A DNA stretch of 32,000 nt, from contig NC_020304.1 in NCBI RefSeq assembly GCF_000341395.1, forward strand, positions 1,170,001-1,202,000, in the 5' to 3' direction. The notes below the pieces were generated by a model. The model had not been told where the DNA came from, did not search any database, and saw nothing but the letters and a program-made list of their open reading frames with translations. A program made the position numbers and the translations under genes. The stretch comes from Desulfocapsa sulfexigens DSM 10523 (GTDB lineage Bacteria > Desulfobacterota > Desulfobulbia > Desulfobulbales > Desulfocapsaceae). This document shows, piece after piece, positions 5,341 to 28,785 of this stretch (position 1 is the first letter of the stretch; each line of letters opens with the position of its first letter).

Positions 5341-8310
5341 TTAAAAGCACCAGACAATCCCACCAGACAACATCTGAGTAGTGGTTCCATCTGCAAAGGA
5401 GGATTCATAGTTCAGAAACAGAGTCAGACTCTTGTTATAGTCTGCTGACATCCCCAAGCTTACCAGCATGGCGTTATCGACGGGATCGGCACCTGTCACC
5501 CTAAAATTATTTACCTGATAATCAACGAAATTTGCATTCAACTCCATTGCATCATTTTTGAACCAGTGCACAAGGTCTAAGCCTGCAGTCGGATGAAAAT
5601 GCCAACCAGCACCACCATCGAAGAGACCTGAGAGACGCAAACCGAGTAGTCCTGAAAGGGTATCGGTAACTTTGCTCTGTATGTGAAATCCAAAATCATC
5701 GACACCTTGCTCCGTGAATCCATCCTGGTCAAGATACAGATAGTTAATTGAGGCGGTGGGGACGAGAAGTAGATTGCCAAAAGAGTAATTATACGTGCCG
5801 GAGAGTGTTGCATCCACCACATTTGAATCGAAATCGCCCACTGCCCTGCTGCTAAAGACAGGAGTATCAATAAAACGGGCAACACTGTTATCAAGATTGG
5901 TATAGCCTAAACCACCATCAAGAGAGAAGTCCTCAAATCGAGCACTGCTGTAAAGTTTGATGTGTTTGCCGGTTATCGAGCCACTCTCTTTCAGTTTATC
6001 CCAGGAAAGGTCACTGCTGCTGTAACCTAGCATCAATCCTGCCCGTACCATGGCGCCAAAAGTACGGTCCATGCCGAAGACAGTTCCTCCGGTATCAACT
6101 GTATATCCCGAGATCCAATTCTCTTCATCCTGGTCAAGCCGGCTACCGATAGCTCTTCCCCAGACACTCCACAGTTGTTTTTGGTCATCATCAACAGTGA
6201 CCGGAGTCCAATAGAACTCCTGTTGTCTTAAGGTCGCCATCCGATTAAAGGTTCCAGCGATGGAAAGCCCCGAGGGGGCAAAGGAAGTATATATCTCTGG
6301 ATTCAGACCGTTCAGGGTGGCACTGAGTTTGGCAGGGTCCATTGCAAAATCCATTGCCAGGAGCAGGTCTGTCATGCTCCCTTGGGCCGACGGCAGGATC
6401 TGATCGAGAGCCGAACCAACTGCCGCCTGATTAGGGCTGGCACCAAAGCTTGAATAGGGGGTGCGATCAACAACAAGGCTCAGAGAGCCACCTGTATAAA
6501 CCGGTTCAAGTGCAATGGTATATGATGTGAAATTAGAGCTGATTGAAGAGAACCTCCCATGGATTCCATCATCTGCGGCAAGGATATTCCATCGAGTTCC
6601 GTCAGGATAGAGGGCTCGCTCCAAAGAGGCGGTGATTTTCCCATGATCAATGGATACAGCTCCCCCCACCTTGAGCAGGTCGCTCCTTTCATTTGCCGCC
6701 AGTTCCACGTTAAAGATACTGCCCGGCATAAAGTCGACTGAGCCATTCACGGTTAAGGTACCGATGGAATTTCCAGGTGACACAATACCATAGGCTTTGA
6801 CGTCGCTGAAAATATTACCATTACCACCCAGCAAACCGTTTTTACCCACTATCAGGAGTGAGGTAAACAGACTGCCATTAACAGAGAGACTGCCGCGGTG
6901 GATAGTGGCTGTACCTCCAGAGAGATCCCAGGTACCGACAAGCGTGCTGTTACCGCCAAAGATCTCCAGGTTTTCGAAATTAAGATAGCGACTGCCGTCC
7001 ACCGTCCCCACGTTGTCGAAGGCAAGGGTATCCGTGCCAGCACCGCCGTCGGCCGTCCCGGTCAGGGTGCCACCATCAGCCAGAAAAAAAGTATCATCAC
7101 CTGCCTCCATCTCAACCGAGCCATTGAGGGTTCCGGCCAGGTTGATAGTGTCATTATAGTTACCGAGTGCGACAACACCTGTGGTAATCGATCCGCTATT
7201 AAGAGTGACCGTAATCGGCCCCCCAGCTGCAAGAATGGCATCATCGGAGGGAGATCCGGATAAGTTTCTGACCATTCCGTCAACGGTTATGGTAATAGCT
7301 TGCCCATACCCTGAGTAGGAATAGATGCCAGCGCCATCTCCCTGTACCAGGCTCGAAGATCCTACGGTTATGGTGGTAGGACCGCCGAGATTAATGGCAT
7401 ATATCCCGGCACCGCCAATACCGGTAACCGTTCCACTGGTGGTCACCGTCAAACTGTCGCCGGTAATATTAATGGCAGCTAGACCGTCATATCCACCTGT
7501 AACATTCGCCGCTGATATACTAAGATCGGTACCATAATTGATGGCATAAATTCCCATAATGCCACCCATAACCGTGCCACTCGTGGAAATCGAAAGGGCA
7601 CCACTTCCAGAGTTATCGGCATAGACACCGGCCACGCCACCGTACACATTCTTTGCTGATATGTTCAGGTCAGTACCTGCGTTATTCGCCTTTATTCCAT
7701 AAAGGGCAGCTCCTTCAACAGTACCACTCGATGTGATTGACAACGATCCACTACCGGTGTTAAGCGCTACGATGCCATGAAGACCACCCGTCACATCGGC
7801 CGTTGATATGTCCACGTCACTTCCACTATTGAATGCTACGATGCCATGAGTACCACCTGTCACATCGGCCGTTGATATGTTCAAGTCACTTCCGTAATTG
7901 CGTGCGAATATGCCATGAACACCACCTGTCACCGTGCCATTAATTGTGATCGACAGCACTTCACTGCTACTGTTATTTGCTAAAATACCGCTATAACTTC
8001 CAGTGATGGTCGACAAATTGGTGTCGGTAATGGTGAGACCGCCTACAGCCCTAAAATCTAAGGCATCGCCTCCATTTGTACTGGTGTCAATACCGAAACC
8101 AGCTGCCGTAGTCACCGTAAGGGGAGAAGCAATATCAATGGTCTGTTCCGTATCCATTGTTGAATTTGCAGGATCTGAGCAGAGGTACGTGCCAGCGGCC
8201 CCTGTACAGGTACCGGCAAAAGCACGATGGTAATAACCGGATAACATGCTGACCATGAGAGTGCTCGCTCTCAAGAGAGGAACAATGGCTTTTCGACAAG
8301 TAGGAATCAT
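5341..8310 (-). CDS. Autotransporter outer-membrane protein (repetitive beta-helix passenger plus C-terminal beta-barrel)
   Basis: The passenger is Gly/Thr/Ser/Asn-rich with 23-25-aa repeats (GGxHGIxAxNxGSDLxISxxxVT). The C-terminal roughly 280 aa has alternating beta-strand character and ends ...GGIVWCF (aromatic terminal residue). I chose the start at ATG 8310 (MIPTCRKAIVPLL..., signal-like), which removes the overlap with the upstream gene. Confidence 0.85.
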   Translation of the reverse strand: MIPTCRKAIVPLLRASTLMVSMLSGYYHRAFAGTCTGAAGTYLCSDPANSTMDTEQTIDIASPLTVTTAAGFGIDTSTNGGDALDFRAVGGLTITDTNLSTITGSYSGILANNSSSEVLSITINGTVTGGVHGIFARNYGSDLNISTADVTGGTHGIVAFNSGSDVDISTADVTGGLHGIVALNTGSGSLSITSSGTVEGAALYGIKANNAGTDLNISAKNVYGGVAGVYADNSGSGALSISTSGTVMGGIMGIYAINYGTDLSISAANVTGGYDGLAAINITGDSLTVTTSGTVTGIGGAGIYAINLGGPTTITVGSSSLVQGDGAGIYSYSGYGQAITITVDGMVRNLSGSPSDDAILAAGGPITVTLNSGSITTGVVALGNYNDTINLAGTLNGSVEMEAGDDTFFLADGGTLTGTADGGAGTDTLAFDNVGTVDGSRYLNFENLEIFGGNSTLVGTWDLSGGTATIHRGSLSVNGSLFTSLLIVGKNGLLGGNGNIFSDVKAYGIVSPGNSIGTLTVNGSVDFMPGSIFNVELAANERSDLLKVGGAVSIDHGKITASLERALYPDGTRWNILAADDGIHGRFSSISSNFTSYTIALEPVYTGGSLSLVVDRTPYSSFGASPNQAAVGSALDQILPSAQGSMTDLLLAMDFAMDPAKLSATLNGLNPEIYTSFAPSGLSIAGTFNRMATLRQQEFYWTPVTVDDDQKQLWSVWGRAIGSRLDQDEENWISGYTVDTGGTVFGMDRTFGAMVRAGLMLGYSSSDLSWDKLKESGSITGKHIKLYSSARFEDFSLDGGLGYTNLDNSVARFIDTPVFSSRAVGDFDSNVVDATLSGTYNYSFGNLLLVPTASINYLYLDQDGFTEQGVDDFGFHIQSKVTDTLSGLLGLRLSGLFDGGAGWHFHPTAGLDLVHWFKNDAMELNANFVDYQVNNFRVTGADPVDNAMLVSLGMSADYNKSLTLFLNYESSFADGTTTQMLSGGIVWCF
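7783..7920. repeat. Two near-identical 69-bp tandem units inside the autotransporter passenger region
   Basis: Units starting near 7783 and near 7852 share ACCACC(C/T)GTCACATCGGCCGTTGATATGT(C/T)CA(C/A)GTCACTTCC... Together they encode consecutive GG(T/L)HGIVA(F/L)N.GS...ISTADVT repeats. Confidence 0.8.
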
Positions 8311-8338
8311 GGTATTTTTTCTGTCGTTTAAGGGGATG

Positions 8339-9484
8339 TCATGTATAGGTGGAAGATGGGATGGATGGCTCATAGGTGACCAGTCCTGCCGCATCAGATG
8401 AATTTGGGCTGACAGTCATAGGGCAGCGGAAGCCGGGAATAACAGCAACATCGAACAATTCGGCCACTGCCCCGTCGATACGAAGCCAGTCGATGCAACA
8501 GCGCTTATCCAGATCGATGACCTGGATACCGCACCACGGTTCAGAGTCGGCATCTTTCAACTTTTGATCAAGTGCTAATCCTTCAAAGCGTTTGTAGCGG
8601 GGCTTTGACAAACCCACAAAGGCAAGGTTGCCATGGAATGCCAGGCCACGAAGAAATCCGGGACAGAAGACCCGTGGCTCAAAGCGTCCCTTTTCTTCCT
8701 GTCCATCCTTCGGGAGAGTCACAACGCCCAATTCGCCGGTTCCAGCGTTAAGGATCCATAGTTCTCCCTTATACATTCTGGGTGAATGCGGCATGGACAA
8801 CCCGTCACAGACAATCCGGCTGGTCTGTACATCAATCACGATCCCCCCACCGTCACGCCGGTCTCGCCAGCCGTCGATAGTATCCGAGCGGCTGACTGCG
8901 GTCACATAGGCCGGTTGGCCGTCATCATCCATGGCTAACCCATTGAGATGGCAACGATCTTCACTTACAATGGCTGAGATAAATGGTGGTTTCCAAAGTA
9001 CCTCGAAGCTGTGTTGGGGCGATACCGTGGCCAGGCAGTTGAAGCGGGTGTTGACGAAGATAATCTGCCCGTTACGATCGACGCCAATATCGTGGGCATC
9101 AAGCTCGCCCGTTATATGGATTGTTCGCGGCATAAAACAGGCATCGAAGGTCTCGTTAACCCGTTCATGCAATTGCAGAACGTTTGCCAGTTCGATAATC
9201 TGAAAACCTGCTGAGAGTACGATTCTCCCATGATTGTTGTGGGCGAGACCCATGGGTTTGATCATGGCGCTTTGATGGAGATGGACACCTCCATTGGGTA
9301 AAACACCCAGCATATAAAGCAGATTGGACTGATAGGAAGTGAAGGCGATGGAGAGGTTCAACCTCTGCAGACGGACAGCCAGTCCCCCTGAGAGGGAGTA
9401 GTCGACGGGGAGTTCTCCTTCCACTGATTTGGCGAGTTCGGCCTGCTGCATAGCAGAAACCTTTTCCTTTTCCAAAAACCCCAT
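8339..9484 (-). CDS. TIGR03032/DUF4915-like conserved protein of unknown function
   Basis: The 381-aa soluble protein carries motifs DRCHLNGLA, DGWRDRRDGGG, GLSMPHSPR and GELWILNAGTGEL, which I recall as characteristic of this uncharacterised family. This is from memory and was not searched. The gene ends 28 nt upstream of the autotransporter start. Confidence 0.6.
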   Translation of the reverse strand: MGFLEKEKVSAMQQAELAKSVEGELPVDYSLSGGLAVRLQRLNLSIAFTSYQSNLLYMLGVLPNGGVHLHQSAMIKPMGLAHNNHGRIVLSAGFQIIELANVLQLHERVNETFDACFMPRTIHITGELDAHDIGVDRNGQIIFVNTRFNCLATVSPQHSFEVLWKPPFISAIVSEDRCHLNGLAMDDDGQPAYVTAVSRSDTIDGWRDRRDGGGIVIDVQTSRIVCDGLSMPHSPRMYKGELWILNAGTGELGVVTLPKDGQEEKGRFEPRVFCPGFLRGLAFHGNLAFVGLSKPRYKRFEGLALDQKLKDADSEPWCGIQVIDLDKRCCIDWLRIDGAVAELFDVAVIPGFRCPMTVSPNSSDAAGLVTYEPSIPSSTYT

Positions 9485-11372: not shown

Positions 11373-14300
11373 CTAAACGCTCTTGCCAAAGGCACTGACC
11401 TGGGCCATGATGCCATCAAAAGTAAAGCGTCCCATATCGATAGCCATGGTCGGACAGCGGGCGGCGCACACTCCGCAGCCCTTACAGGAAGCGGTTAAAG
11501 TCTGGGCCTTGCGGGGCTTAACCTCCTTGTTAATAGTAATGGCCTTATAGGGGCAAAAAGTCTCACAGGCCCCGCAGCCGATACACAAATAAGGATCGAC
11601 ATGGGAGACGATGGGCTCAGGAGAGATCGATCCATTGGCCAGGGGGTGGCAGGCCCGACCGGCCGCTGCCTGGGCCTGGGCAATGGTCTCATCCATCGAT
11701 TTAGGGGCATGGGCCAGACCGCAGACAAAGATCCCGTCCACCGCCATATCAACCGGCCGCAGCTTGACGTGAGCCTCCAAATAAAATTTGTCGGCGGTAA
11801 CCGGAACTTTGAGCATCCTTGACAAGATCGACGGATCTTCAGGCACAATGCCCACTGACAGCACCAGCAGATCGGTATCCAGTTCCACTTCTTCGCCCAG
11901 TAGCGGATCGTAGCCAACTACCTTCAACGGGCTTGATTTACTTCGGCCTGGAGTGACTTTTGGTGGATTATCAGGAGAATAACGGATAAAGATCACACCC
12001 AGTTCACGGGCCCGACGGTAATCATCCTCCATGAATCCGTAGGCCCGCATATCGCGGTAAAAAACAAAGATAGTGAGATCGGGGTTTATGGTCTTGAGAC
12101 GGATAGCGTTCTTCAAGGCCTGGCCGCAACAGACCCGGCTGCAGTATGCCAGATCAGCGCCCCGTGAGCCCACACATTGGATCATCACCACCTGCTTCGT
12201 CTTTGCTGAAAGCGGACGACCGGAAGCCAACCGCTGCTCCAGCTCCAGCTGGGTCAATACCCGCTCGGACTGGCCATAAAGATATTGCTCGGGTTTATAG
12301 GGCTTGCCGCCTGTGGCGATCACCATAATCCCGTGGTTAACCACCTCACTGCCAGCCTTCCTGGTAATGGTGGTGGTGAAATTGCCCACATAACCGGAGA
12401 CACTGGCCACCGTTGCTCCGGAATAAACGTGAATTCGGGAATGGGTTTTCACCTTGTGAACCAGATCCGCAATGGTCTTACGCGGATCGCCACCAAAACG
12501 GTCGGCGCTGAGTAACAGAGTCGCCCCTCCCAGGGTGTCCTCCTGTTCAACCAAAGTCGTAAGAAATCCCTGCTCAGCAATGGTCAACGCTGCAGTCATC
12601 CCCGCCAATCCACCACCAATGACAAGGGCTGATGGGGTAACCGGCAACCGTTGTTCCGGAAGGGCAGTGAGGTGGGCAGCCTTGGCCACAGCCATGCGCA
12701 CCAGATCTTTGGCCTTAGCGGTGGCCGCTTCGGGCTCGTGCATATGGACCCAGGAACATTGATCACGGATATTAGCCATCTCGAACAAGGCACGGTTCAG
12801 GCCTGCATCCCGCAAAGTAGTCTGAAAAAGAGGTTCATGGGTACGCGGGGTGCAGGCAGAAACGACGATACGGTTGAGTCGGTGTTCACGGATGATGTTG
12901 ACAAGATGCTGCTGGGTGTCCTGAGAACAAGAGTAGAGATTGTCGGTAGAATAAACCACGCCGGGCAGATCCCGGGCATAATCGCGAACTGCCCGAACAT
13001 CGACGACTCCTGCGATATTGATACCACAATGGCAGACAAAGACGCCGATACGGGGCTCCTCCCTGGAGATATCACGCTCCTCCGGGAACACGGCTTTGGT
13101 TATCTCCATGCCACGCGCTGTGACTAACTGGCCTGAACAAAGGGCGGCGGCCCCACCAGCCTGGGTAACTGAATCAGGGATATCTTTTGGCCCCTGAAAG
13201 GCACCGATCACATAGACACCGGGCCGGCTTGTGGCAAGGGGAGTGTAGTTGTTGGTCTGGGCAAAGAGGTAACTGTTCAGATCGATGCCGGCGGCCTGGC
13301 CAAGCTGCTCTGCATCGTCCGGCGACTCCAACCCCTGGGTGAGGACAACCATGTCGAACTTTTCGTAATGATGTTTGCCGTCCTCCGTGGCCCAGGTGAG
13401 CAACAGTCTACCGTCAAAGACATCCTCCACTTGCGGTGGCCGGGCGTATATCACCCTGAAGTTGTTTTCGAGAGTGGCCCGCTCTCTTGCTGCATCAAAG
13501 CCTTTGCCGTGGGTGCGGATATCCATGTAAAAAAGAGTGATTTCAGCGCTGGGATCATGCTCGCGGGCAAGGGTTGCCTGCTTGATGGCGTACATACAGC
13601 AGACCGAGGAGCAATAGTTATTACCGCAGTTCTGATCGCGGGAACCGATACACTGGATAAAGGCGATCTTTTTGGGGTGTTTTTTGTCAGAGGGACGGAG
13701 AATCGCACCACCGGTGGGCCCGGATGCACACATCAGCCGTTCGTGCTCAAAGGCACTGAGCACATCCGCGAACTTGCCCCAGCCATAGCGGCCAAGAACC
13801 TCTTTGCTGGTCCGGCCAAATCCTGGTGCCAGGATGACGGAACCAATAGCGAGATCTAAAATCTCTTCCTTCTGGTCAAAACGGATTGCCTTGGCCTGGC
13901 AGGCAACGGCACAGAGGCCGCAGGTCTGGTAATTGAGCATGAAACAGGCTTTCGCATCAATATAATAGCTTGTAGGCACGGCCTGGGCATAATCGATATG
14001 AGCGGCGTTCGAGATCCCGAGGTTCTCGTTATAATCATCGTCAATCTGCTTGAGGCAGTAGAGAGTACACTGGCCACAACCGGTGCATATCTCTTCGTCG
14101 ATATACCGAGGCTCTTTTCTGATCCTGGCGGTAAAATTACCGGGAACGCCGTCGAGTGAGATCAATTCCGACTTGGTCAGGATCTCGATATTGGGATCGC
14201 GACCCGCCTCTACCAGCTTTGGGGCGAGAATGCAGAGCGAGCAGTCGTTGGTGGGAAAGGTCTTGTCTAATCGGGCCATAACCCCGCCGATGGCACCGGA

Positions 14301-14435
14301 TTTTTCAACCAGATAGACTTTGAGACCAAGTTCGGTGAGATCGAGTGCGGCCTGAACACCAGCCACCCCGCCACCCACCACGAGAACCGCCCCGACTGTT
14401 TTCAAAGCGGAAGGAGTGGGAATAGAAGCGCGCAT
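11373..14435 (-). CDS. hdrA: HdrA-like FAD/Fe-S oxidoreductase (heterodisulfide reductase subunit A family), tandem double module
   Basis: There are two dinucleotide-binding motifs (VVGGGVAGVQAAL near the N-terminus and VIGGGLAGMTAAL mid-protein). There are two HdrA-type CS(S/R)VCC motifs and several CxxCxxCxxxCP ferredoxin motifs, including two at the C-terminus. A strong RBS AAAGGAGGAGCT precedes ATG 14435. Confidence 0.88.
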   Translation of the reverse strand: MRASIPTPSALKTVGAVLVVGGGVAGVQAALDLTELGLKVYLVEKSGAIGGVMARLDKTFPTNDCSLCILAPKLVEAGRDPNIEILTKSELISLDGVPGNFTARIRKEPRYIDEEICTGCGQCTLYCLKQIDDDYNENLGISNAAHIDYAQAVPTSYYIDAKACFMLNYQTCGLCAVACQAKAIRFDQKEEILDLAIGSVILAPGFGRTSKEVLGRYGWGKFADVLSAFEHERLMCASGPTGGAILRPSDKKHPKKIAFIQCIGSRDQNCGNNYCSSVCCMYAIKQATLAREHDPSAEITLFYMDIRTHGKGFDAARERATLENNFRVIYARPPQVEDVFDGRLLLTWATEDGKHHYEKFDMVVLTQGLESPDDAEQLGQAAGIDLNSYLFAQTNNYTPLATSRPGVYVIGAFQGPKDIPDSVTQAGGAAALCSGQLVTARGMEITKAVFPEERDISREEPRIGVFVCHCGINIAGVVDVRAVRDYARDLPGVVYSTDNLYSCSQDTQQHLVNIIREHRLNRIVVSACTPRTHEPLFQTTLRDAGLNRALFEMANIRDQCSWVHMHEPEAATAKAKDLVRMAVAKAAHLTALPEQRLPVTPSALVIGGGLAGMTAALTIAEQGFLTTLVEQEDTLGGATLLLSADRFGGDPRKTIADLVHKVKTHSRIHVYSGATVASVSGYVGNFTTTITRKAGSEVVNHGIMVIATGGKPYKPEQYLYGQSERVLTQLELEQRLASGRPLSAKTKQVVMIQCVGSRGADLAYCSRVCCGQALKNAIRLKTINPDLTIFVFYRDMRAYGFMEDDYRRARELGVIFIRYSPDNPPKVTPGRSKSSPLKVVGYDPLLGEEVELDTDLLVLSVGIVPEDPSILSRMLKVPVTADKFYLEAHVKLRPVDMAVDGIFVCGLAHAPKSMDETIAQAQAAAGRACHPLANGSISPEPIVSHVDPYLCIGCGACETFCPYKAITINKEVKPRKAQTLTASCKGCGVCAARCPTMAIDMGRFTFDGIMAQVSAFGKSV

Positions 14436-16423: not shown

Positions 16424-17761
16424 ATGAATATCTTACTTTATGGTGCAACAGAGCTTGGCTATATGCTGGCGAAGCGACTCTATCTGGAGCATAGTGTTAC
16501 TCTCATTGACGACCTGAAAAGGATGCCGGACAAATTTAATAATCTGGATCTCAGTTTCGTCGGTGGGAGTGGTGCTGATATTGATGCCCTGGAACAGGCC
16601 GATGTGAAGAAATGTGAACTGTTCATTGCCTGTTCCGGTCTTGATGAAGCCAATATTGTTGCCTGCTGGACAGTAAAAAAAATCGTGGATATTGAGACAA
16701 TTTGTTTTATTCGTACCATGGAACTCTACAGGAATCTTGCTTCCCCAAAACAGGATCGTTATCTGACCAGATACGATATTAATACCATCATCTGGCCGGA
16801 ACAATTACTTACCCAAGATATTTTTCGTATCATTTCTGTCCCCGAAGCCATTGATGTGGAATATTTTGCAGAAGGCCGGGCAAAGCTTTTTGAATACCGC
16901 ATCAAGGAAGATTCCGTCCTGTGCGACCACCGTGTCATGGATTGTTCTTTTCCTCCAGATGTACTTATTGTCGGCATCACACGTGAAAACCAGCTTTTTA
17001 TCCCAAATGGTTCTACTATCATCCTGGAGGATGATAAAATTATTTTCATGGGTACAAATTCTGCCCTCGATAGTCTGGCGGCAACAATATTTCAATCAAC
17101 TGAAGTCACGAAGACTGCTGTCCTCATAGGTGGAGGCAGTGTTGGTTTCATGTTGGCCCAGAAACTGGAACAGACTGGAATCCGAGTGAAAATCATTGAA
17201 CATGATCAGGCGCGATGTGAATTTCTGGCAGACAACTTGAAAAAAAGTCTCATACTCCATGGAGATGGGACAGACTTGGAACTACTAGAAGGGGAAAGCG
17301 TAGATAATGCTGACGTTGTTGTCTGTATCACCAATAATGATGAAAAAAACCTTCTCTGCTCACTTCTTGTCAAACAGCTTGCCCCCACCCGACGAATTAT
17401 CACCAGGGTTAAGGATGCTAGAACCGGTCAACTCTTTGAGAAGGTAGGCATTGATGTTACTGTATCTCCGCGGGACTCGGCACTCAAAGAACTTCTCAAT
17501 CGTGTGCAAGCAAGAAACGTAGACATCCTGGCGCTGGTAGAAGGAGGACAGGGGGAAGTATTGCGTCTGACTTTGCCTGAAAATTTCCCCGAAACAAAAG
17601 TTATTGATCTCAAATTTGAGGTCCAGGCAATTATAGGGATTGTCAAGCGGGGGCGGAGTCTTCTCATTCCCACTGGTAACACCGTTTTACAAGCCGGAGA
17701 TCAAATAAAGGTCTTCACCATGGCAGACGATGCCGAAATCGTAAAAATGCTCTTTTCCTGA
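16424..17761 (+). CDS. trkA: Trk potassium uptake system NAD-binding component TrkA (two RCK modules)
   Basis: The 445-aa protein has two TrkA-N/RCK_N plus RCK_C units. The second Rossmann motif is canonical (LIGGGSVGFMLAQKL). The first is degenerate (LLYGATELGYMLAKRL). The stop overlaps the trkH start (TGATG). Confidence 0.88.
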   Translation: MNILLYGATELGYMLAKRLYLEHSVTLIDDLKRMPDKFNNLDLSFVGGSGADIDALEQADVKKCELFIACSGLDEANIVACWTVKKIVDIETICFIRTMELYRNLASPKQDRYLTRYDINTIIWPEQLLTQDIFRIISVPEAIDVEYFAEGRAKLFEYRIKEDSVLCDHRVMDCSFPPDVLIVGITRENQLFIPNGSTIILEDDKIIFMGTNSALDSLAATIFQSTEVTKTAVLIGGGSVGFMLAQKLEQTGIRVKIIEHDQARCEFLADNLKKSLILHGDGTDLELLEGESVDNADVVVCITNNDEKNLLCSLLVKQLAPTRRIITRVKDARTGQLFEKVGIDVTVSPRDSALKELLNRVQARNVDILALVEGGQGEVLRLTLPENFPETKVIDLKFEVQAIIGIVKRGRSLLIPTGNTVLQAGDQIKVFTMADDAEIVKMLFS

Positions 17762-19218
17762 TGAAACTCAGTAATGTCCTTAATGCTCTTGGAATCATCC
17801 TTGTTGCCTTTGGTACAATCCTGCTGACTCCGATTGTGGTTGCTCTCGTTGAGCATGAATATAGCTCTGTTCTTCCTTTCATAACCGCAGCATCAACATC
17901 CATTGGGCTTGGCCTGCTATTCCAGAAATATGGTGGTTTCTCGAGAAATTTTGACGATCTTAAACGCAATGAAGGGCTGCTCATTGTCTCCCTTGCCTGG
18001 ATTGTTACAGCGGCTATGGGGGCGATCCCCTATCTTTTCTATGGCCTTTCTCCACTGGACGCCTATTTTGAGTCTGTATCCGGTATTACCACAACGGGTG
18101 CGACTATTCTCACTGATTTTTCCCTCTACCCCAAGGATTTCTTTTTCTGGCGTAGCCTCAGCCAATGGCTTGGTGGTATGGGGATTATCGTTTTATTTGT
18201 CGCTATCCTTCCACAATTTGCAGTGGCCGGCAGGCAAATATTTTTTGCAGAAGCACCAGGCCCCACTGAAGAAAAAGTGACCCCAAGAATTACCCATACG
18301 GCAAAGGCTCTCTGGCTGGTGTATCTCTTGTTGACTCTGTTGGAGATATTTTGTCTTGCTGCTGCCGGTATGCCTCTCTTTGATGCCACCTGCAATGCAC
18401 TTTCAACAATGGCAGCCGGGGGCTTTTCTCCCAACCCTTTGTCAATTATGGGCTATGAGAGCTCAACCGTTACCTGGATTATTACTTGTTTTATGTTTTT
18501 GGCAGGAAGTAACTTTGCTCTCCAGTACCGTTTTCTCATACAGGGAAAACCATTGCCCCTATTGAAAAATGAAGAGTTTCATTTCTACACTTCTATTGTA
18601 CTCTTTGTCTCGGTATGTCTCTGTATTGCGCTTCTTCTGGATGGCACAGCCACATTCCTTGATGCTGTCCGTGACAGTCTTTTTCAGATAGTATCTATTA
18701 TCACCACAGCCGGATTTTCATCAGCGGACTTTGCTCTTTGGAGTGTTACTGCTCAGACCATTCTTTTTACTGTGATGTTGGTGGGGGGCTGTGCCGGGTC
18801 AGCAGGAGGTGGAATAAAGGTTATCCGTGTGCTGTTTGGTCTGAAATATCTCAAACGTGAAATTACCCAGATTATCCATCCAAAAGCAGTTCTTCCTATT
18901 AAAATCGATCACAAGTCAGTAGCAGAAGATATTCAACGTCAGATTTTAGGGTTTCTTCTCTTTTATCTCGTACTGATGACCTTCTCTGCCCTTTTAGTGA
19001 CGATTATTGAAGGGGATGCTGCAGTTGGGATTGTAGGTACTGCCGCCACCATCGGCAATATCGGTCCAGGCTATGGGGAAATTGGTCCCATGGGAAGTTT
19101 TGGGGGGCTATCAATACTGACCAAAATTATCTTCATTCTCAACATGATCGTTGGTCGCCTGGAACTAATCCCCTTTTTAGCCATGCTGCATCCTGATTTT
19201 TGGAACTTTAGAAGGTGA
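17761..19218 (+). CDS. trkH: Trk potassium uptake membrane protein TrkH
   Basis: The 485-aa polytopic protein has repeated selectivity-filter-like GxTTTGA/ GGFS motifs (SGITTTGAT, MAAGGFS, ITTAGFS). It is translationally coupled to trkA. Confidence 0.88.
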   Translation: MKLSNVLNALGIILVAFGTILLTPIVVALVEHEYSSVLPFITAASTSIGLGLLFQKYGGFSRNFDDLKRNEGLLIVSLAWIVTAAMGAIPYLFYGLSPLDAYFESVSGITTTGATILTDFSLYPKDFFFWRSLSQWLGGMGIIVLFVAILPQFAVAGRQIFFAEAPGPTEEKVTPRITHTAKALWLVYLLLTLLEIFCLAAAGMPLFDATCNALSTMAAGGFSPNPLSIMGYESSTVTWIITCFMFLAGSNFALQYRFLIQGKPLPLLKNEEFHFYTSIVLFVSVCLCIALLLDGTATFLDAVRDSLFQIVSIITTAGFSSADFALWSVTAQTILFTVMLVGGCAGSAGGGIKVIRVLFGLKYLKREITQIIHPKAVLPIKIDHKSVAEDIQRQILGFLLFYLVLMTFSALLVTIIEGDAAVGIVGTAATIGNIGPGYGEIGPMGSFGGLSILTKIIFILNMIVGRLELIPFLAMLHPDFWNFRR

Positions 19219-21228: not shown

Positions 21229-23694
21229 TCAAGACAGCCCGCCTCTTACCTGCTGATATACTGTTTCCGTCAATGAGTCATAGGTATGGCCCTCGGGAAA
21301 AACGGGCTGCTGAAACCTCACCGACACCTGACGCAGAGGTCTGGGAAAAAGAGTCCCCACGGGTAGAGCCTGATAAGCACCATTTATGGTAACAGGAACA
21401 ACCGGGACATTCAGCTCCATACTGAGAATGGCGAATAGTTTCTTGAAATCTCCAAGGGTACCATCCATACTTCGCGTTCCCTCAGGGAATATCATAATGT
21501 TTTTCCCTTTTTTCAACACCTCGGCCAGCTTCTGAATGGACTCTTTGAGGCCTGAGTTCAGATCCACGACGATAACATTATTTCTGTCTGCCAGAAAACG
21601 TATTAGCGGATTGTTAACATGTTTTCGTTTGGCATAAAAATAGGTGTTTTTGAAAAAATTCTGCTTGAGCAGAGACGCCACAAACAGGCCATCATAAAAA
21701 CTCTGATGGTTCGGGGCTATAATGCATGGTGTATCGGGGATGTTCTCCTGGCCCTCCCCCTTAAACCTGAAGTAACCCTTAAAAAAGAGTTTGCTGCAAG
21801 TCCTGAATACATTGGCGGTAATCCATGTCCTGGGAAGTGTCAGGTCAACTTTTTCTTTCAGAATATCTTTCCAGTTTACCAGCTCAACGCTTATTTTTTC
21901 CTTCTTCTCCTGAATAAATTCACTGAGACGACGAACTGTCTGGTGTGCCATCAGTTTTTCTTCGCTGAGTTCCACCCCGAAGGTGGATTTCAGGAAGGCA
22001 AGAAGACTCACCTGATCGAGAGAGTCCATGGCGATATCAATCTCCAGATGGTCATCGGGAAAAATTTCCCTTTTACTCTGTTCCTCGATAAAACCTTTGA
22101 TAATAAGATACTCTTCAAAGTCAGGCTGCCTGGCATCGCTTTTCCGTGCTGCCCTCTTTCCTACCAGATCAGGTAACTGAAAACGGCGCAGCTTGGAAAG
22201 TCGTGTCTTGGGCAATTCTTCGTCTATCAAGGTGAATTTCAGGATGCGTTTTGAAGGAGAAACCGTCTTATTGTAGGCATCAATAATCTTCCAACGAAAG
22301 AAATCATCAAGCTCCGTGATCTCACGCGCCCTGACTTTCTGAAAATCCGGCTGAATAACTGCCTGCAGGATATCATCCTTCACAAAGACCCCGACTTCAT
22401 TGATGCAGTCTGTTAAGCTCTCCAGTTTCTGTTCAACCAGAACCGGATTGATATTCTTGCCACTGGCCAATACAATAATTTCTTTTCTGCGGCCGGTTAT
22501 AAAAAGCCGCCCCTTCTCATCAAGATGACCAAGATCCCCGGTGTAGAGCCATCCATCCTTTAAAACCTCGGCGGTTTCCTCTGGACGATTCAGATACCCC
22601 TGCATAATATTTTTTCCCGATGCGACAATCTCCCCATCCCGTATCTCAATACTGGTGCAGGACATAGCGGTACCGGCAGAACCGATGGTGACCTGACCAG
22701 GACGGGTAAAGCTAATCATCGGTGCAGCCTCAGTCATTCCAAATCCTTCAAGGATTTCAAAGCCCAGAGTCATAAAATTACTACCGACATCAGGATCGAG
22801 GGCAGCTCCACCGCAAACAAGATACTTAAGTTTTCCACCAAATTTTTGATGTACGGCCTTAAAAATCATACGGGAAAAGCCCTGAGAACCTGCTTTTTCG
22901 GCGATGAAAAAGAGCAGGCGGGCAATTTTCTTCTGATTAATCTTGTCCATAACGCCTTTACAGATCGTCTTATACAGCCGGGGCACTCCAATAATAATTG
23001 TAACCTGATTATTCTGGAGAGTACTGATAATATCCTGCGGCTGGAGGGACGGAGACATGGCGATGGTCGCACCAACTGACAAAGGAGCAACCATGGAACC
23101 AAGCAGAGGGAAGATATGATGCAGGGGAAGCAGAAGCATAACCCGTTCATCGATGGAATATATGGGTACCCCGATGGAAACGGCTTCCACATTCGCCATC
23201 ACATTCTCATAAGAAAGCATTACACCTTTGGGATCGCCGGTGGTTCCGGAAGTGTAGATTATCAGCGCTGTGTCATTCAGCGATTTTTTGGCAAAATCGA
23301 TTCCTTCTACGACTTCTTCAGAAGTATTACCAGCTGTCCCCACATCTTCATAAACAAGGAGAAGTGGAGTATGGTCAATGGACTCAATAACACTGCGAAA
23401 GAGTTTCTCCCGCTCACGGGAACAAAAAACAACGTCCGGTAAACAATCGTTTACGATGTAGATTACTTCCTCAACGGTTGACAGATAATCAACCGGAATA
23501 ACAGTACAGTTATTTTTCCACGAACCAAGAAAACTGTAAATCCACTCCGGCCTGTTTTCCGAGAAAATCAGAACCCGTTCGGCGGTATCTGGAAACAGCT
23601 TTGCAAAATAGACTGCCTCTCGAAGAAGATCCGCATAACGTATTTTCTGATCCTTCCACTTGAGTGCCGTCTTGTTGTAATTCTTCAAAAACAT
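21229..23694 (-). CDS. Tri-domain fusion: acyl-AMP/CoA ligase - carrier (ACP-like) domain - 1-acyl-sn-glycerol-3-phosphate acyltransferase (PlsC family)
   Basis: The AMP-binding motif YTSGTTGDPKGV and the later YTGDLG are present. The phosphopantetheine-site-like segment is IAMDSLDQVSLLAFL. The acyltransferase has HX4D as NHQSFYDG and block III FPEGTRS. All lie in one 821-aa ORF. Confidence 0.85.
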   Translation of the reverse strand: MFLKNYNKTALKWKDQKIRYADLLREAVYFAKLFPDTAERVLIFSENRPEWIYSFLGSWKNNCTVIPVDYLSTVEEVIYIVNDCLPDVVFCSREREKLFRSVIESIDHTPLLLVYEDVGTAGNTSEEVVEGIDFAKKSLNDTALIIYTSGTTGDPKGVMLSYENVMANVEAVSIGVPIYSIDERVMLLLPLHHIFPLLGSMVAPLSVGATIAMSPSLQPQDIISTLQNNQVTIIIGVPRLYKTICKGVMDKINQKKIARLLFFIAEKAGSQGFSRMIFKAVHQKFGGKLKYLVCGGAALDPDVGSNFMTLGFEILEGFGMTEAAPMISFTRPGQVTIGSAGTAMSCTSIEIRDGEIVASGKNIMQGYLNRPEETAEVLKDGWLYTGDLGHLDEKGRLFITGRRKEIIVLASGKNINPVLVEQKLESLTDCINEVGVFVKDDILQAVIQPDFQKVRAREITELDDFFRWKIIDAYNKTVSPSKRILKFTLIDEELPKTRLSKLRRFQLPDLVGKRAARKSDARQPDFEEYLIIKGFIEEQSKREIFPDDHLEIDIAMDSLDQVSLLAFLKSTFGVELSEEKLMAHQTVRRLSEFIQEKKEKISVELVNWKDILKEKVDLTLPRTWITANVFRTCSKLFFKGYFRFKGEGQENIPDTPCIIAPNHQSFYDGLFVASLLKQNFFKNTYFYAKRKHVNNPLIRFLADRNNVIVVDLNSGLKESIQKLAEVLKKGKNIMIFPEGTRSMDGTLGDFKKLFAILSMELNVPVVPVTINGAYQALPVGTLFPRPLRQVSVRFQQPVFPEGHTYDSLTETVYQQVRGGLS

Positions 23695-25323: not shown

Positions 25324-26475
25324 TCACTGTTTACCATTGCTGACGATGATCTTGGACTTCACAGCACGTATCTGCGGAATGAGAATCGACCTGAAAGCAT
25401 CATAAGCCGCCTCAATGGGAATGGCGCAATCATTGCCTTTGGGGTCCCTGAACACCCCACTGTTCAGGCCACTGACATTTCCATATCTGTCCAACAACGG
25501 CCACCCCTTATCCTCTTGTTGTATCCGAATATCACTGCATAGCATTTTTTGCTTCTCAAGTGAGGCTGCGTTGTCAACCACTCTCCCCTCCTGCACCAAA
25601 ACACCGCTCTCTGCCCTGTATCCTGCAATAAAAGCCCTGTCACCTGCTCGCAAGGGAATAGTACGGGGACGAAGAGGCGTGTACTTTAGTTTTGCTGTAT
25701 TCACCTGAAGCAGTAACAGATTATGAGCAGTAGAGCTGTAAGTTATTTTTTTGAGCTTCAACCGTTTCCCCTCTGAGGAGAGGATTTTTATATCCGATAA
25801 ATTTTCAAGAGACGGCCCACTGGTTTTCTTTAACAAATCACCCAACTCCTGGCTTCTGGTGATACTGGTAAAAAGTTCCTTCTTTTTTTCTTCGGAGAGA
25901 CGTTGAAATGTTTCTTTTTCATAGCCAGGCAGCAGAAGATTCATTTTTTGCCGAATAGTCCGCAATCTTTGCTGCTCAAGAACAACAATCTGATCCAGCA
26001 GTTTTTTTTCATATCTGGCCTTCTCCAGTTTTTCTTTGCTGGGCCCCGCTACATCCCCTGCTGTCAGAATATGTCCTTTATAATCAATAAAAAATCCTGT
26101 CGCCTGGCCAAGGGGAGAATCGATATACACAAGCGATCGCAAGACACGTCTGGACATCTTCTCGGTGGCCGTCGGAACCCTGTCAGGTTTGCGGTCTATC
26201 TTTTTTCGGGTGGATTCGAAAACAATTGGAGAGATCTCCAGACCTGTTTGCAGGACGACTTCCTCTGGCGCTGATTGCTCATCGGCTATAGGTGTATCCA
26301 AGGATACACTTTCAATATTCGGCAAAGGATCAACTGCAGCAGACATCTCATCTCTCATGGGGACAAGATAAGCCAATAACGCTGTGGCCAAAATCAAAAT
26401 AAGCAGAATCAGTAAGAAAGGCCTGTAAGTAAATGATTTCAAACTATACAACTTCCCGGTAACATTCTTTATCAT
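25324..26475 (-). CDS. Membrane-anchored trypsin-fold (S1/HtrA-like) pseudoprotease with coiled-coil insertion
   Basis: The N-terminal basic tail is followed by a TM helix (PFLLILLILILATALLAYLV). The fold landmarks are GQATGFFIDYKGHILTAGDVAG, AHNLLLLQVN, PLRAGDRAFIAGY and EDKGWPLLDRYGNVSGLNSG. D141, N252 and K323 sit where the catalytic His, Asp and Ser are expected. Confidence 0.65.
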   Translation of the reverse strand: MIKNVTGKLYSLKSFTYRPFLLILLILILATALLAYLVPMRDEMSAAVDPLPNIESVSLDTPIADEQSAPEEVVLQTGLEISPIVFESTRKKIDRKPDRVPTATEKMSRRVLRSLVYIDSPLGQATGFFIDYKGHILTAGDVAGPSKEKLEKARYEKKLLDQIVVLEQQRLRTIRQKMNLLLPGYEKETFQRLSEEKKKELFTSITRSQELGDLLKKTSGPSLENLSDIKILSSEGKRLKLKKITYSSTAHNLLLLQVNTAKLKYTPLRPRTIPLRAGDRAFIAGYRAESGVLVQEGRVVDNAASLEKQKMLCSDIRIQQEDKGWPLLDRYGNVSGLNSGVFRDPKGNDCAIPIEAAYDAFRSILIPQIRAVKSKIIVSNGKQ

Positions 26476-26484
26476 TCTCTATTA

Positions 26485-27933
26485 TTATTTTGCATCATCC
26501 AGCCACTCTTCTATCAGCCTGGGCTTAAAAACACAGCTTCCAGGTGCCCGCCAGGTACACTGGCCATTCATTTCAATTCCATGCCTGATAACTGAAACAG
26601 GGCGATCCGAGGAGACAACCACCACAATCACCCCATCGTGCTCTTTGGAAAAACGAAGGGCTGAATTATAGCGCGCTCCTCTGGCCAGATCTTCACCATA
26701 AATGCTTCGGCCATCGAGGAGGCAGGAAAATCCGCGGAGACAGGATTCAGCATCAATATGGAGTGCTCCATCCACGGCAGAAAGAGAAGCCGCGAGAGAA
26801 AGGAGCCTTTCTTCTGAAAGGTCAAGAGGCTGCTCAAACTTCTGACCGGGAATATCAAGAGGAGAACTTTCCAGATCTATTACCAGAGTGCAGCCATGGG
26901 AGGATTTTTCAGCATTGTGGACCAGGGCACTGATAATATGGAAAAGCTTATACACAGAGTCACTGCTTAATGACTCTGCCTCTAGGAGGCTTTCTTCAAC
27001 TTCAACCAACTTAGCCATATTGGTGGTGGAATGAAACTTTCCATCGAAAAAGCTGCAGACGGTTTCTTCTCCCGTTTTAATAAAGCCATAGCTTTCATTA
27101 AACTCAACCAGAATAGAAAACTCAAGATCCTCGTCGGATGCAATACCAACGATAGAGACCCCATCGGAAACGAGCCTGTTACCAGACCCTTTAACACTCT
27201 GCAGTAATTTTCGAACATGCTTGCAATTATCCAGTTGCGGCCGCTCACCCTCATTAAAACGAGCAAGAAAAGAAAGCTGCCCCATCAGCCTCGGCTCCAC
27301 AAAAAGCAGACTCCCATCCGGCAAAGCCCCTTCTTCCAGAGTCTTTGAGATACCCAGGATAGCCTTCAAAACCGGGTAAATACGGATTTTGGAATCGATA
27401 CCGAGACGAAAGTTACATTCATCAATAATACAATCCCGAACGGCATGAGTCGCGTACTCCTTGAGAAAACTCCCCGAGATCCCGGAATATAACTCCTGCT
27501 CATTGGCAATGTCATGGGAAAAACGGAGTACAGCATACTCCAGCCAACGTTCCGTTGGTCCAATGGAGCAAATATCAGGATGGTGTTCTGTAAACCACAT
27601 CTGATAAAAGACAGAACCCGATCGACCGCCATAGCTGACAAGACCATCAAGCCCTAAGTTTTTTTCTGGAAGGATATGACCATATCTTGCTTTATCATTT
27701 TCGAGATTAATGTCGACACACCACTTCCCATCCGGGGAAAAAATCATCCTCAATGCCGGATCATAGCCTTTCAGCAGACTCTGAGGATCACAGATATACA
27801 GTTTTGACTGGGGAGTAAGGCAGTATATCACCGCCACCCGACTCGGCCCCGAGAATTCAGACAGACCTTCCTGGAGACCATGCAGTATATCACTTGTACA
27901 ACGATGAACAAAATGATCGACTCGACTGGTCAT
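26485..27933 (-). CDS. DisA_N/DAC (diadenylate cyclase)-fold protein with large N-terminal domain of unknown function and non-canonical active-site motif
   Basis: The C-terminal roughly 140 aa aligns by eye to DAC domains: HGCTLVIDL, VDGALHID (DGA at 26764-26772), and GARYNSALRF (RYN at 26665-26673) in place of G(T/A)RHR(A/S)A, then VIVVVVSSDRPVSVI. There is no TM helix and no Walker motifs. Confidence 0.6.
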   Translation of the reverse strand: MTSRVDHFVHRCTSDILHGLQEGLSEFSGPSRVAVIYCLTPQSKLYICDPQSLLKGYDPALRMIFSPDGKWCVDINLENDKARYGHILPEKNLGLDGLVSYGGRSGSVFYQMWFTEHHPDICSIGPTERWLEYAVLRFSHDIANEQELYSGISGSFLKEYATHAVRDCIIDECNFRLGIDSKIRIYPVLKAILGISKTLEEGALPDGSLLFVEPRLMGQLSFLARFNEGERPQLDNCKHVRKLLQSVKGSGNRLVSDGVSIVGIASDEDLEFSILVEFNESYGFIKTGEETVCSFFDGKFHSTTNMAKLVEVEESLLEAESLSSDSVYKLFHIISALVHNAEKSSHGCTLVIDLESSPLDIPGQKFEQPLDLSEERLLSLAASLSAVDGALHIDAESCLRGFSCLLDGRSIYGEDLARGARYNSALRFSKEHDGVIVVVVSSDRPVSVIRHGIEMNGQCTWRAPGSCVFKPRLIEEWLDDAK

Positions 27934-27948
27934 TTTGTATTTTTATCC

Positions 27949-28785
27949 TTACTCAACCAGATGGGCCCATTCTTTGGTACCAAACCAGTAATGATGACGC
28001 TCTTCCAACCAGCCCTCGTGACTGACGATGGTAATCCAGTTATTAAAAAAGCTGATGGTATCAAAATCACCTTTTCGCACAGCAAAACCAATAGGCTCTC
28101 TGGTAAAATTCGACTCAAGTGGCAGGAACATGGTTTCAGGGTATTTAATAGCCTCATAGGCTGGTCGGGGAGCTGACCCCACAACTGCATGAACATTGCC
28201 GTTACGAAGCTCCTGATAGGCCTGGGCCTCATCATCAAAGAGGCGTAATTTGGCATTCGGGATGTATTTCTTTACTGCTGTAACCGCTGTGGTCCCCAGT
28301 TTACAGGCAATCTCCACATCCGCATTGTTAAAATCCTCAAGACTTGCAAACCCTGCCGCCTTTTCTTTATGGGCAACAATGGCCATGCCGGAGTAATCAT
28401 AGGGAATTGTAAAATTGACCTTGAGTGCACGTTTTGTCTGTATGCCCATGCCACCGATAACCACGTCAAATTTTCCGGTGAGCAATGCCGGGATAATTCC
28501 AGCCCACTTGGTTGGAACAAACTCCACTTTCACTCCCATATCGGAGGCCAATCTTCTGGCAACATCAATTTCAAATCCTACCAACTCCCCCGATTTATCT
28601 TTCATGGCCCAGGGCAGAAAGGTATCCATCCCTACTCGCAGAACTCCGCGCCGCATGACCTGGTCAATTGTTGATTCGGCTATCAGCTGATTCTGCATTT
28701 TCCCGGCCATGACAGGGATTGCTGTCATAATCAGTGCTGTAATAAGGCAAATAGTTACAAGAACTTTTCCGTTGAATGTCTTCAT
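27949..28785 (-). CDS. Amino-acid ABC transporter periplasmic substrate-binding protein (family 3)
   Basis: The signal peptide is MKTFNGKVLVTICLITALIMTAIPVMAG. The SBP_bac_3-type pattern includes LRVGMD..PWA...GELVGFEIDVA...W..IIPAL..GKFDVVIGGM. An AGGAGG RBS is present. Confidence 0.85.
   Translation of the reverse strand: MKTFNGKVLVTICLITALIMTAIPVMAGKMQNQLIAESTIDQVMRRGVLRVGMDTFLPWAMKDKSGELVGFEIDVARRLASDMGVKVEFVPTKWAGIIPALLTGKFDVVIGGMGIQTKRALKVNFTIPYDYSGMAIVAHKEKAAGFASLEDFNNADVEIACKLGTTAVTAVKKYIPNAKLRLFDDEAQAYQELRNGNVHAVVGSAPRPAYEAIKYPETMFLPLESNFTREPIGFAVRKGDFDTISFFNNWITIVSHEGWLEERHHYWFGTKEWAHLVE

Follow-up and report, generated by a model that had tools for sequence, protein, structure and literature searches.

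Among the described diadenylate cyclases (DACs), the housekeeping enzyme CdaA/DacA (4RV7, 6HVL, 6HUW, 6GYW) is anchored to the membrane by N-terminal transmembrane helices, and DisA, the DNA integrity scanning protein (3C1Y), carries its DAC domain at the N-terminus, from which a linker leads to a DNA-binding HhH domain. When RHR was changed to AAA in MtDacA, BtCdaS and MbCdaM, the enzymes were inactive, and the MtDacA mutant no longer bound ATP. For DacM, the single mutants D112A, G113A and R143A, the last of which concerns the first Arg of the RHR motif, lose activity. A minimal active DAC is PanS of the Panoptoo/PanDA defence systems. Its partner is an S2TM-beta effector, and it constitutively makes cUA or c-di-AMP as decoy signal. 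The conserved catalytic residues of PanS are DGF and GGR (10.64898/2026.08.10.743927), and since PanS is active with only D-G-x and G-x-R, the full RHR motif is dispensable. DS-2C/CdaG (DACNG-DACNH-DAC; NF053872, DS2_3_antiphage) shares its operon with genes for a CD-NTase and for an effector of the Cap15 type. One DS-2C protein of F. okinawensis and two of Hymenobacter reportedly carried out robust nucleotide-signal synthesis in vitro, and LC-MS confirmed c-di-AMP as product for the Hymenobacter DS-2C, but not for that of F. okinawensis (preprint 10.64898/2026.08.10.743927).

A three-domain protein with a C-terminal DAC domain

The window, which is the whole stretch of 32,000 nucleotides of Desulfocapsa sulfexigens DSM 10523 analysed here, contains a complete gene for a protein with three Pfam domains:

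26485..27933, minus strand: complete gene of the DACND-DACNH-DAC protein, 482 aa (open reading frame list, ATG start, three Pfam domains)
27397..27912, minus strand: DACND domain, putative sensor module, residues 8-179 (PF21749, E 3.4e-79)
27058..27378, minus strand: DACNH domain, residues 186-292 (PF21750, E 1.4e-28)
26578..26922, minus strand: DAC (DisA_N) domain, predicted to be catalytic, residues 338-452 (PF02457, E 4.3e-13)

The domains follow each other in the order DACND, DACNH, DAC, and their Pfam scores (264.8, 99.3 and 49.3 bits, respectively) are all above the cut-offs; for DAC (PF02457), the gathering cut-off is 27 bits. The same architecture was found in all of the best 120 among 1677 homologues (120/120, precomputed domains). 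It is frequent in Desulfobacterota and is said to be one among the DAC families listed by Galperin in 2023. Thus, the family is large and already catalogued, and the window protein adds one member to it.

The earlier note had described the roughly 330 N-terminal residues as featureless, and this description is superseded by the two curated Pfam families DACND and DACNH. The idea that this part works as a sensor is plausible, since Pfam labels both of them "probable sensor domain", and we infer a regulatory role for DACND and DACNH. The AlphaFold2 model of the N-terminal part reached a pLDDT of 89.4. When it was compared with the PDB by Foldseek, no fold match was better than E 0.047, and the likeness to longin/TRAPP, LOV/PAS and IclR-type folds was weak and non-significant (best E 0.047). 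According to a remark in the literature, DACNH would be a degenerate form of the DAC domain. This was not reproduced here: hhalign of DACNH against DAC gave a probability of 0.3%, and there was no DAC among the top 50 Foldseek matches of the N-terminal model.

The DAC fold of the C-terminal domain, which had been proposed from its landmarks, is real, and Pfam, profile-profile alignment and Foldseek all agree on it. When a diverse family profile was aligned by hhalign with five canonical DAC sequences from the PDB, a probability of 95.7% (E 9.4e-9, 120 columns) was obtained. A shallow family profile gave 19.8% with the same motif correspondences. In hmmsearch, the profile of 83 sequences aligned over the whole DAC domain of CdaS (2fb5), SaDacA (6gyw) and BsCdaA (6huw). 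The AlphaFold2 model of the window protein is of moderate confidence (pLDDT 75), and its top 50 Foldseek matches in the PDB were all DAC structures (top matches DacM, CdaA, CdaM, CdaS and DisA; best E 2.9e-5; target-normalised TM of about 0.6). This agreement of alignments and fold matches is well beyond chance. In sequence, this domain has diverged strongly from CdaA and DisA. Neither the whole protein nor the DAC domain alone retrieved anything relevant from the PDB sequences by phmmer. The shallow family profile retrieved nothing relevant either, and the diverse profile was needed.

With CdaA/DacA, the window protein has in common the DAC fold, the order of the motifs, the DGA, the G-x-R and an acidic SEE/SxD segment, and the domain identity is about 20% (hhalign). 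However, its N-terminus is covered by DACND and DACNH and is presumably without transmembrane helices, RYN and a Leu stand where CdaA/DacA carries RHR and a stacking Tyr, and the CdaA model TIGR00159 gave no match to it. The DAC domain of DisA contains a DGA as well, but the window protein has its DAC domain at the C-terminus and lacks an HhH domain, and the DisA model PRK13482 did not match. These results place the protein outside both CdaA and DisA. PanS is a single domain of about 150 aa, in contrast to the three domains present here. The best NCBIfam match of the window protein and of all 83 representatives was DS2_3, ahead of the CdaA, DisA and CdaS models. However, this model matched the window protein with 63.2 bits (cut-off 630) over profile positions 231-487 of 576 and, thus, not over its full length. 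DACNH and DAC are common to both proteins, and the active DS-2C relatives match the window protein in this part only. The N-terminus of DS-2C/CdaG is DACNG, whereas the window protein has DACND and no DACNG match in Pfam. In addition, DS-2C/CdaG carries a C-terminal helical extension of about 90 residues, which the window protein does not have, and the window gene is without CBASS, Cap15 or mobile-element context.

Active-site motifs and their conservation

Four landmarks of the active site can be located in the C-terminal domain:

26878..26898, minus strand: HGCTLVI, residues 346-352, counterpart of the CdaA/DisA strand GALI(S/V)V (alignments; G347 invariant)
26764..26772, minus strand: DGA motif, D388-G389-A390, aligned to D171-G172-A173 of CdaA
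26665..26682, minus strand: R418-G-A-R421-Y422-N423, the clade form of L-G-T-R-H-R (codons, motif counts)
26605..26613, minus strand: S441-S442-D443, opposite S-E-E of the VSEETG segment of CdaA (alignments; S441 and D443 invariant)

It can be seen that the landmarks have the order claimed in the earlier note, that the DGA is kept and that RYN occupies the position of RHR. Three independent alignments agree on this assignment; they place HGCTLVI on (I/H)GALI(S/V)V, VDGAL on HDGAV, GARYNSA on GTRHRAA and VVSSDRPVS on VSEETGGIS. In CdaA, a Glu of the SEE segment acts as metal ligand. R421-Y422-N423 is encoded by cgc-tat-aat at 26673-26665. The first Arg is thus retained as R421, which is conserved, while His is replaced by Y422 and the second Arg by N423; a clade-specific Arg, R418, is located three residues upstream of R421. 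RHR is absent from the expected site, where the window protein reads GARYNSA and CdaA/DisA read GTRHRAA. Nor does a canonical RHR occur at any other place, as a scan of the full sequence of 482 aa showed. At the stacking-Tyr position of CdaA, the alignment shows Leu in the DACND-DACNH-DAC family, and DisA likewise lacks a Tyr there.

The homologues show that the RYN-type motif is kept across the whole DACNH-linked clade. GAR[YF]NSA is present in 116 of the 120 closest homologues. Among the 113 readable representatives of 50% clusters, 70 carry RYN, 34 RFN and 6 RHN (R-[Y/F/H]-N in 110/113). When homologues of a DS-2C-like protein (DACNG-DACNH-DAC) were collected without using the motif for selection, G[AS]R[YF]NSA was found in 119/120. 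DS-2C/CdaG and the window family have a common signature, which comprises R-G-[AS]-R-[YF]-N-S-A, D-G-[AS] and S-E/x-D-G. An Arg at position -3 was observed in 339 of 349 clade sequences, whereas seven canonical DACs carry L, T, S or Y there. The DGA is present in 112 of the 115 readable representatives and the acidic D at the SxD position (D443) in all of them (115/115).

In a set of 83 diverse full-length representatives (24-51% identity to the query), all of which contain the DACNH domain (83/83), no more than ten columns are invariant, seven in the DAC domain (G347, G389, A390, G419, R421, S441, D443) and three in DACNH (E200, E201, K242); K238 is near-invariant, and conservation reaches 90% or more at D388 and N423. 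Invariant active-site columns at 24-51% identity suggest that selection maintains a functional active site. The RGARYNSA and SSD of the window protein fit the signature R-G-x-R-[Y/F]-N-S-A plus an invariant SxD, which was derived in the present analysis and is an unpublished criterion. Judged by these motif counts, R-G-x-R-[Y/F/H]-N-S-A is the normal form of RHR in the DACNH-carrying DAC branch and no mark of decay.

Probable catalytic activity and reaction product

The earlier note had assumed that a full RHR is needed for catalysis. In the studies considered here, support for this premise comes from the triple RHR-to-AAA mutants, and the single-residue tests cover the first Arg only (DacM R143A, GGR of PanS). 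The triple mutants also remove this first Arg, which is kept here as R421. Asp, Gly and the first Arg, the importance of which was demonstrated one by one in canonical DACs, are near-invariant to invariant in the clade. One relative with the altered motif can be connected to the activity data. The Flagellimonas okinawensis protein P0354 scores 739.9 bits with NCBIfam DS2_3_antiphage (cut-off 630), sits in a CD-NTase-Cap15-DS-2C operon (L093) and carries RGSRYNSA; it is presumably the F. okinawensis DS-2C of the preprint, with which it was matched by species and family, not by accession. As the reportedly active DS-2C share the RHR deviation, the full RHR is no strict requirement of the superfamily. 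For the same reason, the suggestion of the earlier note that RYN may mark an inactive pseudo-cyclase is not supported: RYN is the conserved signature of a clade that includes DS-2C with reported c-di-AMP synthesis in vitro. A clade-wide RYN together with reportedly active DS-2C relatives makes an ordinary working enzyme probable rather than a dead one.

We consider it probable, at roughly two chances in three (about 0.65), that the window protein, a member of the DACND-DACNH-DAC family, works as an active diadenylate cyclase under the control of its sensor part, an activity and a product that we infer. Two C-terminal DAC domains would pair head-to-head, each with one ATP, and D388-G389 of the DGA together with D443 would bring the divalent metal and the 3'-OH into place. 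The phosphates would be held by G419-x-R421 and probably also by the clade-specific R418, which may compensate for the altered RHR. The expected product would be 3'3'-c-di-AMP, and the DACND+DACNH module would gate the cyclase activity upon a signal. Some loss or change of function may result from the replaced His and second Arg.

It is conceivable, but rather unlikely, that the enzyme is active but uses ADP or other NTPs, or makes a mixed dinucleotide such as 3'3'-cUA in place of c-di-AMP, brought about by R-G-x-R-Y-N or by the lid. The PanS DAC makes 3'3'-cUA through remodelling of its lid loop, but there it is this loop, rather than the RHR-equivalent residues, that sets the base choice. 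The Leu at the stacking-Tyr position of CdaA would fit an altered product, but DisA also lacks the Tyr at this position. The strong divergence of the DAC domain from CdaA/DisA, with no phmmer match in the PDB, points in the same direction; however, the nearest assayed R-[Y/F]-N relatives make c-di-AMP. We regard with similar doubt a more far-reaching proposal, by which the phosphate site of the DACNH-linked DACs was rewired by moving an Arg from +2 to -3 (R-G-x-R-Y-N vs G-T-R-H-R) and the housekeeping DACND branch, with its structurally unprecedented sensor module (invariant EE...K..RK), differs in substrate or product or receives an uncommon regulatory signal. If this proposal were true, the DACND protein would be the main cyclic-dinucleotide synthase of sulfate-reducing Desulfobacterota.

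We judge it improbable that the protein is an inactive pseudo-cyclase, the DAC domain of which serves as an ATP/c-di-AMP binding or protein-interaction module. That RHR has lost its His and its second Arg here speaks for this explanation, and so do the dead MtDacA, BtCdaS and MbCdaM mutants with the lost ATP binding of MtDacA-AAA, but these mutants lack a first Arg that is invariant in the window family. Moreover, Asp, Gly, Gly-x-Arg and SxD are near-invariant to invariant down to 24% identity, cyclase activity is reported for proteins that carry this motif, and the near-invariant Asn and the upstream Arg suggest a re-specified rather than a decayed site. A missing RHR, which tempts to the call of a dead DAC, does not mean that the enzyme is dead, and R-G-x-R-[Y/F/H]-N appears to be the working signature of the large DACNH-linked branch.

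Genomic context and distribution

The cyclase gene is flanked by two co-oriented genes:

25324..26475, minus strand: membrane-anchored Trypsin_2 peptidase, downstream, 9 bp gap (Pfam)
27949..28785, minus strand: SBP_bac_3 solute-binding protein of an ABC transporter, upstream, 15 bp gap (Pfam)

The Trypsin_2 peptidase gene is probably co-transcribed with the DAC gene. Among 80 species, only 3, all of them Desulfocapsa MAGs, have a Trypsin_2 gene adjacent to the DAC gene, and synteny with SBP_bac_3 was likewise limited to 3/80 species. A conserved operon partnership with the Trypsin_2 peptidase or with the ABC transporter was rejected, since synteny is limited to three Desulfocapsa MAGs among the 80 species. 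An Rfam scan of the window gave no family and, thus, no c-di-AMP riboswitch, and the promoter/terminator scan yielded nothing relevant to the gene above background. When the DACNH-DAC part was compared by tblastn with plasmids and phage genomes, no match was obtained.

It is most improbable that the protein is an anti-phage defence component acting like the DS-2C of CBASS-type DS-2 systems: DS2_3_antiphage is its best NCBIfam match and DACNG-bearing relatives are located in defence islands and prophages, but the match amounts to 63 bits against a cut-off of 630 in the DACNH-DAC part only, PADLOC gave no match, neither a CD-NTase nor a Cap15 gene lies in the vicinity, the surrounding genes are non-defence, housekeeping genes that vary between species, and more than 200 Desulfobacterota species carry the family, which is consistent with vertical inheritance.

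Matches of the gene were obtained in 206 GTDB species, which correspond to named Desulfobacterota lineages; complete genomes with the gene include Desulfonema magnum NZ_CP061800.1 and CP070697.1. The DACND-DACNH-DAC family is thus widespread in Desulfobacterota, and most likely its members act in the cytoplasm as stand-alone signalling enzymes. The family opens no new kind of system. However, since it is widespread and its N-terminal model is confident without a solved structural relative, it is a reasonable entry point to c-di-AMP signalling in sulfate-reducing Desulfobacterota. The signature should be useful for annotation and for motif-based genome screens for c-di-AMP synthases; the homologues are publicly annotated as "DisA nucleotide-binding domain protein".

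Fold and motif assignment of the cyclase domain

The open reading frame on the minus strand (26485-27933) encodes a 482-aa protein with an ATG start, and the ORF listing confirmed the coordinates given in the earlier note. Its cgc-tat-aat codons (26673-26665) specify R421-Y422-N423 inside GARYNSA. In Pfam searches, three domains were assigned:

Residues 8-179: DACND (E 3.4e-79)
Residues 186-292: DACNH (E 1.4e-28)
Residues 338-452: DAC/DisA_N (E 4.3e-13; 49.3 bits vs a cut-off of 27)

Single-sequence searches of PDB sequences yielded nothing relevant for the protein or its DAC domain, and a shallow family profile matched PDB entries and canonical DACs only weakly. A deeper profile built from 83 diverse full-length relatives aligned over the whole DAC domain of CdaS (2FB5), SaDacA (6GYW) and BsCdaA (6HUW). 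When it was compared by hhalign with five canonical DACs, the sequences of which were checked against PDB entries, we obtained a probability of 95.7% (E 9.4e-9, 120 columns). For the AlphaFold2 model (pLDDT 75), the top 50 Foldseek matches were DAC structures only. These data confirm a DAC-fold C-terminal domain that has kept DGA. All alignments agreed on the following correspondences:

HGCTLVI (window protein): GALI(S/V)V (canonical DAC)
VDGAL (window protein): HDGAV (canonical DAC)
GARYNSA (window protein): GTRHRAA (canonical DAC)
VVSSDRPVS (window protein): VSEETGGIS (canonical DAC)

Thus, RYN does sit at the RHR position. An RHR elsewhere in the protein had been named beforehand as one refuting finding, and none was detected when the whole 482-aa sequence was inspected.

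Conservation of RYN and probable catalytic competence

The DACND-DACNH-DAC architecture was present in all 120 closest homologues (54-83% identity), 90 of which carried GARYNSA and 26 GARFNSA. An exhaustive HMMER search provided a more diverse set (150 representatives of 50%-identity clusters). Here, DGA was found in 112 of 115 readable representatives, and the RHR position was readable in 113. It read RYN in 70, RFN in 34 and RHN in 6 cases, so that R-[Y/F/H]-N is conserved in 110 of the 113 and the question whether the variant is conserved in a clade can be answered positively.

In an alignment of the 83 full-length representatives (24-51% identity to the query), ten columns were invariant (E200, E201, K242, G347, G389, A390, G419, R421, S441, D443), and D388, R418 and N423 were each conserved in at least 90%. 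Seven of the ten are located in the DAC domain, at or adjoining catalytic motifs, which is the opposite of the pattern expected from a decaying pseudo-enzyme. Of 349 clade sequences, 339 have an arginine three positions ahead of the conserved one (R-G-x-R-[YF]-N; here 26665-26682, minus strand), whereas seven canonical DACs carry L, T, S or Y. This residue may be a relocated second arginine, a correlated change that might compensate for the lost one. A modest new point, as read from these alignments, is that the R-G-x-R-[Y/F/H]-N signature runs through the whole clade together with a correlated upstream arginine.

When viral contigs were scanned with the clade motif, we found three DACNH-containing proteins. 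The one on contig L004 (573 aa, DACNG-DACNH-DAC) gave a full-length DS2_3 match of 578 bits. A protein search seeded with it, in which the motif played no part in selection, listed 120 matches; all were DACNG-DACNH-DAC proteins and 119 carried G[AS]R[YF]NSA. One of the 120, P0354 (L093, 5001-6773), annotated as diadenylate cyclase [Flagellimonas okinawensis], scored 739.9 bits (NCBIfam equivalog cut-off 630) and is encoded in a CD-NTase-Cap15-DS-2C operon within a defence island. It reads RGSRYNSA and has DGG where others read DGA. Since this DGG is joined by DGS in 16 of the 120 listed DS-2C homologues, the alanine of DGA is also dispensable in this branch. For DS-2C of F. okinawensis, Hymenobacter elongatus and H. 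wooponensis, robust nucleotide second-messenger synthesis was reported, and LC-MS confirmed c-di-AMP as product of the Hymenobacter enzymes (Ragucci, Haley, & Kranzusch, bioRxiv 10.64898/2026.08.10.743927). The preprint text names no accession, and we infer that P0354 is the tested F. okinawensis construct. The same preprint lists DGF and GGR as conserved catalytic residues of PanS, an active minimal DAC. The DAC domains of DS-2C and of DACND proteins are, however, only distantly related.

In the studies consulted, the premise that the full RHR is required rests on triple RHR-to-AAA substitutions in MtDacA, MbCdaM and BtCdaS. Single-residue data concern the first arginine (DacM R143A), the counterpart of which, R421, is kept. 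Because DS-2C with the same motif is reportedly active and the RHR tests in these studies involve triple mutants or this first arginine, R-[Y/F]-N is compatible with catalysis.

Taken together, we assign a probability of about 0.65 to the window protein being an active diadenylate cyclase with RYN as clade-typical RHR, in which the DACND/DACNH sensor module would control head-to-head pairing of the DAC domains. An altered product, or an altered substrate as had also been suggested, appears unlikely. The earlier proposal of an inactive, nucleotide-binding pseudo-cyclase is slightly less probable still: the invariant catalytic columns and the shared motif of reportedly active DS-2C argue against it and leave it without basis. 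A defence role is very improbable, since NCBIfam gave only a sub-threshold partial match to DS2_3_antiphage (63 vs 630 bits, DACNH-DAC part covered), PADLOC found no match, and there were no defence, mobile-element or effector genes among the window neighbours of the DAC gene. Since this architecture has been catalogued before and homologues already carry annotations such as diadenylate cyclase or DisA-domain protein, the protein adds a member to a known family.

The probable N-terminal sensor module

The N-terminal region of some 330 residues, in which no features had been recognized before, consists of two curated Pfam families, DACND and DACNH, which two 2026 preprints credit to Galperin's 2023 diadenylate cyclase classification. 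Both are labeled 'probable sensor domain', which is consistent with the sensor function suggested before. When residues 1-316 (26986-27933) were modeled on their own with AlphaFold2, the structure was confident (pLDDT 89.4, pTM 0.88), but its best match among PDB structures had an E-value of 0.047. Weak resemblances involved longin/TRAPP, LOV/PAS and IclR-type alpha/beta folds. A second modest new point is that the sensor module has no solved structural relative, as judged from the model. DACNH has been described as distantly DAC-like, but we did not reproduce this (hhalign probability 0.3%, no DAC in the top 50 fold matches).

In a stretch of DACNH (residues 199-242; 27208-27339, minus strand), E200, E201 and K242 were invariant among the 83 representatives (down to 24% identity); K238 and G207, as well as G263 further on in DACNH, were near-invariant. 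This pattern suggests that E200-E201 and the K238..R-K242 segment form a conserved binding site, or a ligand or interaction site. A K..RK-like segment is also visible by eye in DS-2C sequences.

Distribution and genomic neighborhood

A genome scan gave 206 species-level matches, and the 80 retained were nearly all from named Desulfobacterota lineages (Desulfocapsa, Desulfobacterales, Desulfosarcina, Desulfonema, Desulfobulbus, Desulfoprunum, Desulforhopalus, Desulfacinum). Closest among the matches listed was 'uncultured Desulfocapsa sp.' (82-84% identity), which makes a Desulfocapsa-like origin of the window probable. In the window, the DAC gene is closely packed between two same-strand genes:

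Upstream, co-oriented: SBP_bac_3 solute-binding protein gene, stop 15 bp ahead of the DAC ATG
Downstream, co-oriented: Trypsin_2 peptidase gene with an N-terminal hydrophobic segment, start 9 bp past the DAC stop

Among the 80 species, this order recurred in only 3, each represented by a Desulfocapsa MAG. Elsewhere, the neighbors vary by species: dnaG-rpoD (two genomes), an MscS-type channel (one), a Na/Ca exchanger (one) or TRAP/ABC transporters (others). Overall, this looks like a housekeeping signaling gene that stands alone and is inherited vertically. In two other species (L009/L010, 6655-8961; L002, 7541-8512), the DACND-family gene adjoins either the MscS-type mechanosensitive channel, in convergent orientation, or the Na/Ca exchanger. 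These adjacencies weakly hint at a connection with ion homeostasis or osmotic balance, but the pattern is not general.

On IMG/VR contig L006 (4888-6696), we observed a 602-aa DACNG-DACNH-DAC protein (DS2_3 297 bits, GARFNSA). Judged by eye, the neighboring ORFs resemble portal, prohead-protease and major-capsid genes, so a phage may carry this DS-2C-like gene within its morphogenesis module. Viral contig L005 (5194-7791) encodes an 865-aa protein in which DACNH is combined with a DAC-like segment below the Pfam DAC threshold (SIDGAI, SRGARYNSA, ISEDG); its C-terminal part is a TPR region.

Three further features were noted in the window:

16424-19218, plus strand: TrkA (two TrkA_N plus TrkA_C/RCK_C) and TrkH potassium-uptake pair, with the DAC gene about 7 kb away
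21229-23694, minus strand: 821-aa fusion protein that joins an AMP-binding, a PP-binding (carrier) and an acyltransferase domain
5341-8394 and 11373-14435, both minus strand: two ORFs of about 1020 aa

In Firmicutes, proteins with RCK_C are classic receptors for c-di-AMP. The fusion protein resembles Aas-type acyl-ACP synthetase/lysophospholipid acyltransferase, and the two long ORFs lie in a stretch of higher GC content (0.51-0.56 vs about 0.45 elsewhere).
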